A DNA stretch of 37,422 nucleotides, from NCBI GenBank assembly GCA_049976305.1, contig JBMFIM010000008.1, forward strand, positions 1 to 37,422, given 5' to 3'. The position numbers are program-made. This stretch comes from Candidatus Micrarchaeia archaeon (lineage in GTDB: Archaea; Micrarchaeota; Micrarchaeia; Micrarchaeales; CABMGC01). Below are positions 6,001 to 12,000 of the stretch, in pieces. Position 1 is the first letter of the stretch. The number at the start of each line of letters is the position of its first letter.

Positions 6001-9000
6001 CTACATAGTTCAGTTCTCCGTCTACTTCCTCTGTTTCTGCGCTTTTCAACAAGCCGATGAGTGGCTCCAGAAGCTTATCGATCTCCTGCCTCTTGTCTTT
6101 CTTTATATACGGCATGCTTAAAAACCACAAACAAAGAATTTAAATCAGATGGAGCAATCTTTTTATTTCTGCACAATAAAATCAATATGAAATTATGCGA
6201 TCGTAGTCTAGCCTGGTAGGACATTGCCTTGCCAAGGCAGGAACCCGGGTTCAAATCCCGGCGGTCGCATATAACTACTTGCAACTTGGATGAGGAATTG
6301 GCAATGGGAACTCTATGCTAAAATATTATGTGCTTGAGCTGCTAGATCCGAACTTCGTAATAACGCCTGTGAGCTCATTGGTCGGCATAGCCTTTGCAGC
6401 GACATATACAAGAATAAGCATATGGCTTCTTGTTCTTCTTCTTATAGGGCTTGCACTTGCGAACATGGCGGTCAATACATTCAATGCCTACACCGACTAT
6501 GCAACTGGTTTGGATAAAGAAGTGCCGCTTACCAAATTCAGCGGGGGCACGATAAAATCTGTATATCTCAGAAAAGGTCTTGTCAATGAGAAAGAGGTCT
6601 TATGGCTCGCTATTTTCGTATTTGCATTGGCTGTGTCAATAGGCGCGTATTTTGTCTTGCGTGTACCGGCGCTTTTGCCCATTGTTGCATTAGGGGCTGT
6701 AGTAATTGTCGTCTATACTACATTTTTGCTCAAGATACCATATGCAGCAGAGCCAATGCTCATAATTGTCTACACGCTCGTGCCAATAGGCGCATTTGTA
6801 GCTTTGACGGGCAAATTGGCTGAGGTGCAAAGCCTAGTTTTCAGCAGCATACCTATAGGCATTCTTGTCAGCATGGTGCTTTTGCTTAATGAAGTGCCTG
6901 ATGCTCCTTTTGACAGAAAGTATGGCAGGAAAAGCCTTGCAGTTATGCTCTCCGATCCGAAGAGGATAGCAAATACGTACCTTTTGCTCCAGGCTTTTGG
7001 CTATGCAGCACTAATAGCAGGAGTATTGGCCAAGTTGCTAAAGCCTCTTGCACTTTTGCCAATGCTTGCAATCCCTCTCATGCTGGCTGCTTATAAAGGC
7101 ACTTTGCATTTTGAAAGCTCGGAAAAGTTTGAGAAGTACATGGGCTACAATGTCGCCTTTTTCTTTCTCTTCGTCATCCTACTAAGCGTTGGCATCTTCC
7201 TCAACGGAGTTCTTTAGGAAGCTTTATGCTTTCTAAGTAGCTGTTCAAAAGCCCCTTGCTTGGGAAGTCTGGAATGCTTCTAGACAGCAGGATTGCTTTT
7301 CTTAAATTCGCATTGTTGATCTTCACAGCTTCGTCAACAGCCTGCGAGACACTCCTGGTTTTTGAATAAATCACATCTATTATGTTGCTATGAGAAGCAT
7401 CATGTTCGCCTTCCAGGTAGTCAAGCACATCGTCCCTTATTTGGAATGCGATTCCGGCCATTGCACCTATTTCGTTAAGCTTTTCAGCAAGCCTGCTTTT
7501 GGCATAAATCGCTGTTACGCTAAGCGAAGCTCCTATGAGCGAGGCAGTTTTGAGATGGGCAATCTGAAGATACTGCCTTAGGGTTCTGGGCCTGCTTTCT
7601 ATCTCTAGCGCCTCCCCAGCGCACATAGCCATTGCAGCGCTAGAAAGATAGGAAACAACATCATTGCCATATGGAGCTGCAAGCTTGATTGCATTTGCTA
7701 TCAAAGCGTCGCCTGCAAGCAGGGCTTGGCTTGTTCCATATTTCACATGCACAGCCTCTGTGCCCCTCCTAGTGCAGCTGTTGTCTATTATGTCGTCATG
7801 AATCAGCGAGGATACATGCAAAAGCTCCACTGCTGCGGCTAAGTCTACAAAATCTTCTTTAAGGTCGAGCATCATTGAGCCTATAAAAACCAATGCTGGC
7901 CTAAGAAGCTTGCCCGGCTTTTCCAGCAGGTGCAAAGAAGCAGCGTAGAGTTTTGGGCTCGCGAATTCTTTTTTGTCTAGGCTTTGTATCTTTGCCACTA
8001 CCTGCTGAAGTCCTATTTCTACATTTCTCTGGGCTTGCAGCGCTTGCATTGCATCGCTAATTTTTCCTATTACAAATATTAATTCCTATTATCCACTATT
8101 CCAAACCCTGAAAAGTTGCCATCTGAGAGCAGAATGAACCTACCAAGTTCAGGATACTTCGCAAAAGAAGAATAGGCTATGGGCTTGCTAAGCTCAAGCT
8201 CGCATTCTGCAGCAAAAATCTTGCCATGCGTGTAAGGCTTTCCTGTAAGTATATCTGTCTTCCTTCCAATCTTTCCTATTTTGCAGCCTAGCAAAACGCC
8301 ATTGAAGTTAATCTGCAGCTTGCCGGAAAGGCTAGATACAGCAAGGACCTTGGCATGTAGTCTCTTGCCAATGCTTATATCTGCATCATTGCTTGCTAGC
8401 ACTTTGCCCTTTGGCTCCTTTACATCTACACTCAGCTTGGCAGCTATGTTTTCACCTTTTTTCGCCTGTCCGCTTCTCTTTCCTTTGACAAGCATTGTAA
8501 GAAGCCTGACCTTCTTGTTTTCAGGTAGCAATAGAAGGTGCTGCTTAGAAGAGAGCTTGCCAGAGATCACGCGCCCTGCTATGAAGCTTTCACGCTCCCC
8601 TTCAACAGTACCGTTAAGCAGAACTACTGCCTGCCCTTCAGGATCATGGCTCCTCTTATGCAATCTCTCGTGTAGGATTTCGAGCAAGGGCTTACCTTTG
8701 TACCATCGCATATTTTTTGATAGCACAACAAGATTTTCGCCGGTGTACGCAGAAACAGGTACAAATACAAAGTTGTTTATGCCCACTGCCTTAAGATACG
8801 TTTCCACTTCTTCTTTTATCTTGTTGAAAGCCTGCTCAGAGTAGCCAACCGCGTCTAGCTTGTTTACCGCTACAATGAAGAAATCTATCCCCAGCATGTT
8901 AGCTATGAAAACATGCCTCCTAGTCTGGTCTTTGAAGCCTTCGCCCGCCTTTGCGGAAACAACCAATACTGCAGAATCAGCATAAGAGGCTCCTGTTATC

Positions 9001-12000
9001 ATGTTTTGTATGAGCTCCTTGTGACCTGGCACGTCTATGAACTCATAGGCAGCGCCTTTGTACTTGAGCTCTGCCCTTGTAGTATCTAGCGTAAGGCCGT
9101 ATGCCCTTTCTTCTGAAAAGCTATCTAGCAGGAAGGCAGGCTCAAATTTTTTGCCTAGCCTTTCGCTTGCTCTTTTCGCTTCTGCTATTCTTGACTCGAA
9201 TACCGAATTGGTTTGTATGAGAAGCTGACCTATTAGCGTAGATTTGCCATGGTCCTTATGCCCCAACACAACTATCCTATCCATGACCAGCGCCTATACA
9301 ATTTTGCTACATATATCCGAGAGCCCTAAGCCTCTGCATGATATAAGCCTTTTCCTTGTCCTGCTCTCTGCCTGATCTTTCTTCAACATTGGTTGTTTTT
9401 AGTTCATTTATTATGTCATCTACTGTTTTTGCGTCTGATTTTATTGGCACCGTACAATGTGTGCAGCCAAGGCTTCTATAGCGGTAGCCATTCCTAGAGA
9501 AGTACAGAGGGTTTACAGGTATATGCTCCCTTTTGATGTAGCGCCAAATGTCTATTTCATTCCAGTCCAAAAGCGGGTGCACCCTAACGTGCCCTCCTTC
9601 CTCTATCTTTGAAGAGTAGTCATCCCAAAGCTCTGGTGGCTGATTCTTGTAGTTCCACTTGAAGTTCTTGTCCCTGACGCTCATGTACCTTTCCTTAGCC
9701 CTTATCGCGTGCTCGTCTCTTCTTATCGACACTATTAAAGCTTTAAACTTGTACTTTGCCATTACCTTCTTCAGTGCTTCAGTCTTATTGGCCCCGCAAC
9801 AGCTAAACCCAGAAATCTCAGGTTTTATCTCGCTTTTCGCCACTATCAGGTTGAGCTTCCATTTTTTAACGAGGTCGTCCCTGAATTTATAGGACTCAGG
9901 AAAATCTATGCCGTTATCAATGTGAATTACTGGAAAAGGCACCTTGCCGAGAAAAGCCTTCCTTGCAATTGCAAGCATTGTAGTGCTGTCCTTTCCCATG
10001 CTCCAAAGTGCGGCAATATTGCCAAACTTTTCCTTTGCTTCTCTCATTATGTATATGCTCCTCTCTTCCAATTCATCAAGATCTTGCTCTATCATTTTAT
10101 CAGCTCTTAAAACTTGTTAATATTAAGCAATCCTTTCAGATAGTAAGTTGCGCCCTCTATTTTCTTCTTTTCTTTTATGAAAATCGGTATCTTCGCTATC
10201 GGCCTCTGGGCAGAATCATAAAGCTCAACGTAGGACTTTGTAAGATCCTGCACGCCTCTCAGCTTGCCATCAATGTAGACTGTTTTGTAGTATTTGGCCT
10301 TGCTTTTTGGGAGAAGTTTCTGAAATTTTTCCCAGTTTTCCTTTACTGGATTTCTGTTCAATTCTTCAACGATTTCCTCAAATTTTGAAGCTACCATGGA
10401 ATTACCCGTATCAAACATAACCAAGTGCCTTAAGCTTTTCTATCACGCTATCTTTGCTTGAGCTTCCTTTGCTCTTTAGATCACTTACCATTTCACGCAG
10501 GATGAATGTAACATAATCTGAAACGGACGAGAAGCCAGTATCTTTTATCTGCTCCTGCAGTTTTTCGAATAGGGGCCTCGGAATAGTGATTGTAGTATAC
10601 TTTCTACCTTCTTCGCTCTCCTTGGCTTTTGCCCTTGCTGCTTGATTCATAATTTAATTGAAATACATTAAAATATAAAAAGGTTTGCATAGAAAGAGAG
10701 CAGCACTGTACGCAGAAAAGACCGAAAAAATTTAAATTATGTTTGGACTTAATGAATAAGCATGGATGCAGATGCAGAGTACGTGCTGCAACATGTCTCA
10801 AGGCTTGCAAGGCTCCAGCTAACCGACGAAGAAAGGCAGAAGTTTGCTAAGCAGATACAAGACGTACTTAATCTATTCAACAAGGTCGCAAGTGCAAATG
10901 TTGAAGGCGAGCCGGCGTATCACTGCATCGAAGCAGAGAATGGACTAAGGCCTGACAAGCCCGTAAAATTTGACTGGGATCCGCTTTCAAATGCAAAGCA
11001 TGTTGAAGGAAAATACATAAAAAGTCCAAAGATTGTTTAGGGTGAGCTTATTGAATACATGCGCACTTTAAAGGAGCATATTGAAGCAGTAAAATCAGGT
11101 AGCATAGACCTTGCTGATTTTTCTGCAAAAGTTGTCGAAGAGGCAAAGCGCGTGCAAGCAGCCTATGCTCCCTTCATTTCCGTAGCTGAATCTATAAAGT
11201 TTGAAGTAACACCACAAAGCTTGCTTCCTGGAGTACCCGTGGCAGTAAAAGACAACATCTGTACAAAAGGCATGAGAACTACTGCTGGATCGAAGATTCT
11301 TGAAAACTATGTACCACCATTTGATGCGACTGTTGTGGAAAAGGTAAAGAAGGAGGGAGCAGGCATAGTCGGCAAAACCGCAATGGACGAATTTGGGTTT
11401 GGAACTTTCTCTACAAACTGTGCGTTTGGCGTGCCTAAGAACCCTTTAGATCCGGAGCGTTCATGCGGTGGTAGCAGTGGCGGATCTGCCGGGGCTGTAG
11501 CTGCGTTCAAGCTGCCGATAGTATCGATAGCTGAATCTACTGGTGGCAGTATAACATGCCCTGCAGCATTTACAGGCACAGTAGGCATAACTCCAACCTA
11601 TGGCCTCGTATCAAGATGGGGGCTTATCGATTACGCCAACTCGCTTGACAAGATAGGCACCATAGGAAAGAGCGTTTACGATGCTGCACTTTTGCTATCT
11701 GCTATTGCAGGATACGATGAAAAAGATGCCACTTCTCTGCGAACGCAGAATACAGATTATGCAGCCTTTGCAAAGCCTGACGGAAAGAAGCTAAGGATAG
11801 GCCTGCCAGAAGAATATTTCTCAAGCGCGGTAGACAGTGGCATAATCAAAGAAGTAGAAAGGCTTGCAGACAGGCTAAACTCGCTAGGCTTCGAATTGGA
11901 GCGGATCTCTCTTCCTTCTACAGAACTTGCAATACCCACATACTACATAATTTCAATGTCTGAAGCTTCTACAAACCTTGCGAAATTCAGTGGCCTAAGG

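Follow-up and report, generated by a model that had tools for sequence, protein, structure and literature searches.

A CysD-CysN operon of Micrarchaeales as a candidate donor-supply unit for glycan sulfation

The operon and its products

The window analysed here, a stretch of 37,422 nucleotides from a Candidatus Micrarchaeia archaeon (contig JBMFIM010000008.1; genome G000, 93.7% complete), carries the four-gene operon that a first-pass annotation had described: four minus-strand open reading frames in the order RHH, 96-aa orphan, cysD and cysN, separated by gaps of 13, 11 and 22 nt. In front of the RHH gene lies a putative TATA-like promoter element (10670..10687, minus strand), assigned on the recurrence of an ACCTTTTTATAT-type element at the same position 5' of most RHH genes of the order; a scan for sigma-70 promoters and terminators returned chance levels only. 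Between this element and the gene (10656..10669) is a degenerate copy of a palindrome whose consensus in relatives is AATGTTATAACATT. The gene itself (10411..10650, minus strand) encodes a CopG-like regulator of 79 aa, which matches PF01402 weakly (E 0.006, below the cut-off), has the RHH/CopG layout of a β-strand and two helices, and ends in an LxxLGY tail, as do 76 of 77 sequences chosen by an RHH pattern. It may well control the module through the palindromic operator, as the sequences in part indicate: a site within 3 mismatches lies upstream of 37 of the 46 RHH genes of the window's subtype (shuffles: mean 1.6, maximum 6), and RHH genes with a different recognition strand have a different palindrome in 11 of 12 cases. 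The copy in G000 scores 1.9, against at least 10.7 for the training sites.

The second gene (10107..10397, minus strand) encodes a protein of 96 aa from its ATG (105 aa in the ORF list, which begins at an upstream TTG), and a repeated search again found no Pfam or NCBIfam family for it. Its homologues were seen only in the order Micrarchaeales in the searches run, where a search of 1.84 billion representatives gave 58 matches, including a row of 5692 aa for which no matched stretch was shown. The gene is present in 108 of 121 genomes of the order and in 105 of the 108 that have CysD, and is retained even where it has moved away from cysD; one homologue is fused to an LxxLGY tail. The structure model (pLDDT 82.6) has a best Z of 3.4 among 48,161 chains, with none reaching 5, which does not prove a new fold, and it yielded no Foldseek match at E 0.001 and no usable Atlas match. 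A predicted complex of CysD, CysN and the 96-aa protein scored 0.84, as compared with 0.00 and 0.00 in partner-replaced controls, although the score was still 0.82 when CysN was the subunit replaced; this prediction returned no verdict and plays no part in our reading. We suggest that the protein might serve the CysD machinery as an accessory subunit with no catalytic role.

The third gene (9307..10095, minus strand) encodes a short-form CysD, the catalytic subunit of ATP sulfurylase, of 262 aa, with a CC...CxxC motif and an LxxLGY tail. It scores 314 bits against PRK05253 (cut-off 195) and falls under the cut-offs of the narrower TIGR02039 and PRK12563; its closest solved structure is 1ZUN_A (E 1e-56), and the PP-loop, RRDE and ERxGR motifs are invariant across 45 CysD sequences. 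Like the CysDN ATP sulfurylases (Pseudomonas syringae 1ZUN, E. coli cysDNC, rhizobial NodPQ), it possesses the SxGKDS PP-loop, RRDE and ERxGR and is encoded beside a GTPase of the CysN lineage, but it lacks an insert of ~33 residues and has the CC...CxxC motif and the LxxLGY end; the operon, for its part, differs in the added RHH and 96-aa genes, the missing cysC and cysH, and a CysN that scores under its family cut-off. The earlier description of CysD as an order-wide trait holds on wider sampling: type-A CysD was found in 108 of the 121 genomes of the order (G000 and the two unpublished genomes G068 and G027 included) as opposed to 5 of 109 genomes elsewhere in the phylum, and its identity across the order is, as had been reported, mostly 70-86%, far above that of CysN (36-48%) and of the 96-aa orphan (37-59%). 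In three genomes initially scored as CysD-negative (G098, G056 and G111) the RHH-orphan genes run off contig ends, so that the absence of CysD is probably an assembly gap; co-occurrence was therefore counted both ways.

The last gene (8079..9284, minus strand) encodes a divergent CysN of 401 aa in which the G1-G4 motifs are all present. It scores 217 bits against TIGR02034, under the cut-off of 336, and 243 bits against the EF-1alpha model, itself under a cut-off of 502; a true EF-1alpha is encoded elsewhere in G000. In a quick tree built from 38 of 52 rows, the window GTPase falls with bacterial CysN and with GTPases encoded next to cysD, apart from aEF-1alpha plus EF-Tu, with support 99, and a clade with aEF-1alpha is rejected (p-AU 0.0014). 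In a related locus, a TauE-family transporter gene lies between cysD and cysN.

The higher score on the EF-1alpha model raises the question of whether "CysD" could be a cluster-dependent PP-loop enzyme acting on some other substrate, such as tRNA, that is delivered by an EF-1alpha-like GTPase. TtcA/TtuA-type enzymes are cluster-dependent PP-loop enzymes that act on tRNA, and the very high conservation of CysD and its four conserved cysteines would fit such a role. We nevertheless consider it highly improbable: CysD passes the PRK05253 cut-off, can be aligned with 1ZUN except at a single insert and keeps ERxGR, the GTPase joins CysN in the tree, the related locus has the TauE-family transporter gene inside its cysD-cysN pair, and searches of several well-assembled genomes did not find the CysD gene.

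The fate of APS

The first-pass annotation had proposed that APS made by this operon feeds a route other than assimilation, and broader searches lend this support. No full-length APS kinase was found in the 121 genomes of the order, as had been claimed; the profile gave short P-loop matches only, in 35 of 121 genomes (best E 1e-5 over ~60 positions), and a tblastn search of G000 with two bacterial CysC sequences gave a best E of 0.007. The absences of sulfotransferase and of sulfite reductase, previously known from a single genome, now extend to 0 of 121 genomes for PF13469 and to 0 of 5 genomes, G000 included, for each of PF00685 and PF01077. Sat was not found in four CysD-negative genomes or in G000, nor was an assimilatory sulfate reduction set (APS kinase or APS reductase plus sulfite reductase, with PF01077 searched in 5 genomes). 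The statement that no second gene of the PAPS/APS-reductase family exists is correct for G000 but not for the order, in which 8 of 121 genomes weakly match another member; the five of these that were examined are stand-alone CysD-like proteins, here called type B, which have no C-terminal cysteine and are thus not reductases either. In the control panels, Haloferax volcanii matched PF01507 but was unmatched for APS kinase (1e-25), Sat, PF13469 and PF00685.

The cysteines of CysD itself bear on whether APS might be reduced in place. C99, C100 and C211 are invariant and C214 is present in at least 90% of the 45 sequences; the four align in register with those of the APS reductase 7LHR, and the CC...CxxC motif, found in 60 of 70 type-A and 17 of 38 type-B CysD-like sequences, is the iron-sulfur cluster motif of APS reductases (PMC1175818). 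CysD shares its PF01507 fold with assimilatory CysH (7LHR, 2GOY) and carries all four cluster cysteines, but it differs in its missing catalytic C-terminal cysteine, its intact adenylation loop and its CysN partner: there is no cysteine beyond C214 in the window protein, and an ECGLH-type reductase C-terminal end was seen in 0 of 108 complete CysD-like sequences counted. To judge from these residues, CysD retains the motif minus the catalytic cysteine and is possibly an iron-sulfur protein.

A cluster-bearing CysD, or a thiol acting in trans, could in principle reduce APS to sulfite for sulfoquinovose or cysteine synthesis. Sulfoquinovose synthase requires sulfite, and its gene lies near cysDN in five genomes (G040, G046, G110, G120 and G108), which, together with the motif, favours this idea. 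We regard it as very unlikely, given that the essential C-terminal cysteine motif is missing from all complete CysD-like sequences counted, that 95 of the 108 CysD genomes, G000 among them, lack the synthase while 8 CysD-negative genomes have it, and that PF01077 is found in 0 of 5 genomes.

To our knowledge, the characterised biosynthetic sulfotransferases use PAPS, and biosynthetic sulfation is taught as requiring it. One may ask whether the sulfatase-fold proteins described below use PAPS as an ordinary donor, made by a P-loop kinase that is moonlighting or has escaped recognition, or obtained from the host; the weak PF01583 P-loop matches in 35 of 121 genomes and a thymidylate-kinase-like gene adjoining an AlkP gene in G065 could be read in this way. 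However, the P-loop matches are short and are scattered over frames whose lengths differ greatly, the clustered neighbourhoods show no kinase family recurring next to cysD, and the bacterial CysC search of G000 produced nothing better than the E value given above, all of which makes such a supply of PAPS seem unlikely to us.

AlkP-fold proteins as probable partners

The first-pass annotation had seen sulfatase-fold genes in 4 of 20 loci, a hint that was right and that becomes much stronger genome-wide. When three families of alkaline phosphatase (AlkP) fold were counted across genomes, with four weak PF00884 matches reassigned from sulfatase-type to NPP-type, an AlkP protein was found in 108 of 108 CysD genomes (106 of 106 minus the unpublished G068 and G027): 91 have the sulfatase type and 73 the NPP type, and the 17 without the former all carry the latter. 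Of the 13 CysD-negative genomes, one has a sulfatase-type AlkP and six have either type, although these counts are drawn from kin genomes and Fisher p-values are accordingly overstated. The correspondence has exceptions in both directions, as G007 (96% complete), G001 and G080 have an NPP-type AlkP with no CysD found, and G098 (83% complete) probably has CysD, its operon being cut by a contig end, but no AlkP match. An AlkP gene lies within 6 kb of cysD in 51 of 108 CysD genomes; the two in G000 (C18:8892-10325 and C10:25651-26847) are not linked to the operon.

T47, H227, D294-H295 and H307 are invariant in 56 AlkP sequences. The C/S-x-P-x-R motif is required for formylglycine; the candidate partner proteins lack it and have T-x-P-x-H in its place, and they score far below the cut-offs of all NCBIfam sulfatase models. 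No transmembrane segment was found in the five proteins tested. Among matches of the C18 protein in an annotated plasmid collection, 19 of 21 records are haloarchaeal; the best (27.7% over 495 columns) has the same T-x-P-S-H motif, with glycosyltransferases and a flippase alongside. The model of the C10 protein is structurally closest to BT1596 (Z 27.3, rmsd 3.1, 301 aligned; next rows ~1-2 Z lower), with phosphoethanolamine transferases at Z 23.

BT1596 is also the best structural match of Agl30 (PMC11980604). Halobacterium salinarum Agl30 and Agl31 are AlkP-fold proteins whose role in N-glycan sulfation was shown by deletion and heterologous expression, and which function in Haloferax volcanii; the sulfate donor is nowhere named (PMC11980604). 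The Micrarchaeales proteins resemble them in fold, in best structural match and in having a soluble member, though such likeness does not equal common function. The LxxLGY tail is common to CysD, RHH, Agl30/31 and the one 96-aa homologue: primer sequences in PMC11980604 translate to LEDLGY, LEELGY and KELGY ends, and the same tail ends 7 of the 8 haloarchaeal AlkP homologues examined, our sequence comparison having been made with these other homologues only. In Micrarchaeales, by contrast, the AlkP enzymes lack the tail, CysD and RHH carrying it instead, and the donor-making genes, undiscussed in PMC11980604, are in view. We suggest that the tail could be a portable docking helix common to module members.

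Type-B CysD-like loci of DPANN and CPR point to the same partnership. Among the loci listed, an AlkP gene is nearby in 30 of 38 and an RHH gene in 26 of 38, mostly among glycosyltransferase and epimerase genes, and APS kinase was found in 0 of 5 type-B genomes examined. Within the order, the operator palindrome lies upstream of 11 of 17 type-B genes and, in three loci, of AlkP genes; the AlkP genes of G000 have none upstream.

Where the module is missing, another route to anionic sulfur appears. Of six CysD-negative genomes that are at least 90% complete, five have no sulfatase- or NPP-type AlkP, and all five have UDP-sulfoquinovose synthase (NF041015, above cut-off), which is an alternative way of placing anionic sulfur on a glycan; the synthase occurs in only 13 of 108 CysD genomes and in 8 CysD-negative ones, and is absent from G000. 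The carbamoyltransferase earlier put forward as a further module partner finds no support here, as homologues occur in 5 of 5 CysD-negative genomes tested, with paralogues not told apart. One G000 copy adjoins ThrRS and Memo, both recurrent cysDN neighbours, which suggests old synteny.

It might be argued that the AlkP proteins act as hydrolases that strip host glycans of their sulfate, or as transferases that add phospho groups, and that CysDN serves otherwise, for example in sulfate recapture or in reverse ATP synthesis from host APS. Their top structural neighbours are indeed glycan sulfatases, followed by EptC, MCR-1 and EptA, the database label is "sulfatase-like hydrolase/transferase", and at least three genomes have an NPP-type protein but no CysD found. 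Yet Thr and His replace the C/S-x-P-x-R motif, host glycans look inaccessible to proteins that have no membrane anchor, sulfate that had been recaptured would itself require a sink, and the GTP coupling of CysDN favours the forward reaction; such a role is in our judgement distinctly unlikely.

A proposed sulfation route and its implications

Gene content, co-occurrence, linkage, motifs and fold are the basis on which we read the operon, with moderate confidence, as the half of a glycan-sulfation module that supplies the donor, with APS going straight to cytoplasmic AlkP-fold transferases. Against this reading stand the G000 AlkP genes, unlinked to the operon and with no operator, the degenerate operator of G000 itself, and the several genomes in which sulfoquinovose synthase shares a cluster with cysDN. 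Given their family membership and intact motifs, CysD and the GTPase CysN would adenylate sulfate to APS, which would be neither phosphorylated nor reduced. APS is most likely consumed by the cytoplasmic threonine-type sulfatase-fold proteins: these would accept its sulfuryl group, probably by way of a sulfo-threonine, and transfer it onto the sugars of a glycan that is lipid-linked or on the surface. The threonine-type AlkP transferases (EptA/MCR-1, EptC, LtaS, BcsG), which share the fold (Z 19-23), a threonine at the nucleophile position and the Asp-His pair, offer a model for such a ping-pong mechanism, although they are anchored in the membrane, act beyond the cytoplasm and take the phospho groups that they transfer from lipids. 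On our reading, sulfation of surface glycans would probably proceed without PAPS.

A more elaborate scheme can be offered only tentatively, and we rate it as somewhat less likely than not: a PAPS-free pathway in which a short, possibly Fe-S, CysD passes APS directly to threonine-type sulfatase-fold transferases, with the LxxLGY helix mediating recognition and letting RHH sense the state of the complex. It would be standard in Micrarchaeales, would exist in CysN-less form across DPANN and CPR, and would explain haloarchaeal glycan sulfation without APS kinase. The literature searched, with most subscription journals outside its reach, gave no glycan composition for Micrarchaeales and no paper that links Agl7 sulfation to a sulfatase, an LGY tail to CysD or a sulfatase, or an AlkP protein to PAPS-independent sulfate transfer; further papers that did come up do not, to judge by title and the opening of the abstract, treat such a module.

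If APS is used directly, many archaeal and CPR "sulfatase" annotations would denote transferases, and the unnamed donor of Halobacterium Agl30/31 would become testable. Micrarchaeales are reduced, host-dependent archaea. That such organisms would spend ATP and GTP on surface sulfation, and swap in sulfoquinovose upon loss of the module, may point to selection on surface charge.

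A conserved operon of Micrarchaeales

The operon is real and order-wide. Its four open reading frames lie on the minus strand of the window, where the first-pass annotation had placed them: a ribbon-helix-helix (RHH) gene (10411-10650), the 96-aa gene (10107-10397), cysD (9307-10095) and cysN (8079-9284), with intergenic gaps of 13, 11 and 22 nt. The RHH match to Pfam is weak, and a family search returned no Pfam match for the 96-aa ORF, as had been claimed. The description of CysD as an order-wide trait that is rare elsewhere was likewise upheld: type A, the short CysD of this operon, occurs in 108 of 121 order genomes as against 5 of 109 genomes of the same phylum outside the order, and its close relatives carry Micrarchaeota names in the databases. 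The 96-aa gene is present in 108/121 order genomes, including 105 of the 108 with CysD (the order tallies include two unpublished genomes, G068 and G027, and the conclusions are the same without them). In three apparent CysD negatives the operon is cut by a contig end.

A polyprenyl synthase gene lies directly 3' of cysN on the same strand after a 29-nt gap and converges on a MenA/UbiA prenyltransferase gene (6315-8049); none of the other loci examined has a polyprenyl synthase next to cysN. In four loci (L018:2298-2696, L019:2294-3118, L064:8809-10086, L187:5983-6672) the operon contains extra ORFs, endonuclease-like or transposon-like by eye, which either separate cysD from cysN or precede cysD. 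The window also holds an encapsulated-ferritin-like gene (PF22277; 15351-15635), and no encapsulin shell gene is annotated within it.

The 96-aa protein lacks cysteine, and across 74 sequences few of its residues (W22 and Y37) are invariant. In five genomes its gene is retained though relocated to a site apart from cysD; no copy was found in genome G018, where CysD is decayed and has no adjacent cysN. From this distribution we read the protein as a putative accessory subunit.

A palindrome, AATGTTATAACATT, follows a TATA-like element in 37 of 46 main-subtype RHH genes (mean in shuffles, 1.6), and a different one is found at 11 of 12 RHH genes with a different recognition strand. AATGTTATAACATT also lies upstream of 11 of 17 order genes for type B, a stand-alone CysD-like PF01507 protein (0/22 outside the order), and of sulfatase-fold (AlkP) genes in three loci. 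Among 400 other ORFs, 11 reached an equal score, and the majority of these share those promoters in divergent orientation. In the source genome the copy at the RHH gene is degenerate and no operator precedes the AlkP genes. The second RHH subtype, with another recognition strand and palindrome (L023, L030, L063, L067, L133-L136), is divergent from the orphan-cysD-cysN unit in several of its loci.

CysD, CysN and the fate of APS

In a tree of 38 GTPases (EF-Tu root, quick method, 14 rows left out), every cysD-adjacent GTPase falls on one side against archaeal EF-1alpha with support 99, and placing the order GTPases with EF-1alpha is rejected (p-AU 0.0014), so that the operon GTPase is a fast-evolving CysN. 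It scores below both the CysN and the EF-1alpha cut-offs and CysD passes that of PRK05253; a substrate other than sulfate for the pair strikes us as very improbable. The source genome has a further EF-1alpha, partial and on a contig of 636 bases (C32:2-634), which may be contamination.

Compared with Pseudomonas syringae CysD, the operon protein is short and lacks the ~33-residue insert. Its C99, C100, C211 and C214 are conserved across 45 sequences and stand in register with cysteines of the APS reductase 7LHR. In APS reductases this motif binds a 4Fe-4S cluster and a C-terminal cysteine is needed too, as described in PMC1175818. We predict cluster binding by CysD, and an operon of SufB, SufD and SufC-type genes ~10 kb off in the window (21154-24366) could be the source. 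Sulfite production would fit the shared cysteines, but the C-terminal cysteine is missing from CysD and PF01077 was found in 0/5 genomes searched, so that we hold it to be a remote prospect.

Type B, a second PF01507 type, occurs in some order genomes; the first-pass claim that a second PAPS/APS-reductase-family gene is lacking thus stands for the source genome, with its single PF01507 gene, and fails for the order. Profiles place type B closer to CysH than to CysD, under every cut-off. Because its SGGxDS loop is intact, it has no C-terminal cysteine and an adjacent CysN is usually missing, it is more probably a stand-alone adenylyltransferase than a reductase.

The reported absence of APS kinase from the order was borne out, the matches being short P-loop ones only; none was found in five type-B genomes or in five type-A genomes outside the order. 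PF13469 sulfotransferases are absent from all 121 order genomes and PF00685 from the five searched. Haloferax volcanii, whose own glycan is sulfated via Agl7 (PMC3892788), matched PF01507 in control panels and gave no APS kinase at 1e-25, no canonical CysD at 1e-45, and no Sat, PF13469 or PF00685; at a looser E of 0.001 an APS kinase match appears. A hidden PAPS step in the order, through an unrecognised kinase or PAPS from the host, we consider unlikely.

The LxxLGY tail and the module outside the order

CysD and RHH both end in LxxLGY (the tail is present in 76 of 77 sequences picked by the RHH pattern), as does type B, and two decayed CysD copies retain it. One (L055:4392-10044, genome G018) has an altered PP-loop, has lost RRDE and keeps its four cysteines; of the other, a 129-aa remnant (L111:6767-7156), only the N-terminus and the tail are left. 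The first has the RHH gene on one side and both sulfatase-like genes on the other, and type B is encoded elsewhere; the second is flanked by type B and two sulfatase-like genes. The same end is found in 7 of 8 haloarchaeal AlkP homologues, in two AlkP proteins of other small archaea whose genes adjoin cysD, and, read from primers, in Halobacterium VNG1056C, VNG1057C and VNG1063H. Haloarcula halobia encodes a 68-aa RHH-like protein with this tail between two sulfatase genes, and at L085:2388-2741 a homologue of the 96-aa protein is fused to it. None of 53 order AlkP proteins (one cluster) carries the tail, and the source-genome protein encoded on contig C18 ends exactly where the haloarchaeal tail starts. 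The simplest reading of these sequences is a portable docking helix; since CysN is mostly missing at type-B loci, we infer that it more probably docks on CysD or on the transferase.

A type-B scan gave 45 loci, mostly labelled Micrarchaeota, Pacearchaeota, Woesearchaeota, Nanoarchaeota and Saccharibacteria. An AlkP gene stands within 6 kb of type B in 30 of the 38 listed loci and an RHH gene in 26; epimerases and glycosyltransferases are frequent there, and one order locus has an STT3-family gene. Small hydrophobic proteins (55-100 aa), which we take to resemble SemiSWEET/PQ-loop proteins, adjoin type B in Pacearchaeota, Woesearchaeota and Saccharibacteria (L101, L102, L109, L110, L112, L116, L082) and are possible sulfate or sugar transporters.

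Sulfatase-fold proteins and probable glycan sulfation

The source genome encodes two sulfatase-like proteins, both outside the window (C18:8892-10325 and C10:25651-26847), with no membrane segment and with T-x-P-x-H in place of the C/S-x-P-x-R of sulfatases. Other genomes have a third family, NPP-type proteins of ~500 aa. Sulfatase-type proteins are present in 91 and NPP-type in 73 of the 108 CysD genomes, and all 108 have at least one of either kind. The earlier remark that a sulfatase-fold gene recurs beside the operon proved sound, with one within 6 kb of cysD in 51/108 (28 NPP-type, 23 sulfatase-type). Among the 13 CysD-negative genomes one has the sulfatase type and six either kind; with the three contig-end cases counted as positive, the figures become 110/111 against 4/10. 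The genomes being kin, p-values are inflated, yet the negatives spread over several genera. The exception among CysD-negative genomes at least 90% complete is G007, where an NPP-type gene is present and no PF01507 gene was found. UDP-sulfoquinovose synthase has the opposite pattern (8/13 CysD-negative vs 13/108 CysD-positive genomes) and is present in 5/5 genomes at least 90% complete without CysD and these AlkP families. At L183:6930-9152 (genome G055) it is split in frame by ~350 aa, probably an intein.

In Halobacterium salinarum the AlkP-fold proteins VNG1056C and VNG1057C sulfate an N-glycan, as shown by their deletion and by their expression in H. volcanii (PMC11980604, whose main text mentions no APS, PAPS or other donor). 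The model of the C10 protein (pLDDT 87.5) best matches BT1596 (Z 27.3), also the best match of VNG1056C (PMC11980604). The next matches are nearly tied, and phosphoethanolamine transferases score up to Z 23; hydrolase or phospho-transfer roles for the AlkP proteins, which such matches would suit, seem to us improbable. Among plasmid-collection records matching the C18 protein 19 of 21 are haloarchaeal, and glycosylation clusters surround C18-like haloarchaeal genes in 3 of 4 regions examined. The S-layer of one cultured Micrarchaeum is glycosylated (bioRxiv 2021.04.28.441871), and the source genome has an AglB-like gene (tblastn E 1e-46) without a Pfam match.

Archaeal CysDN is handled purely as assimilatory in the available part of PMC6286981. 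Known relatives exist for the parts of the operon; the literature searched yielded no description of the combination, the CysD cluster motif, the LxxLGY tail or the orphan subunit. On balance we favour a role for the operon in supplying APS for glycan sulfation, in which APS from CysD and CysN would pass to sulfatase-fold transferases that modify the glycans of these archaea.
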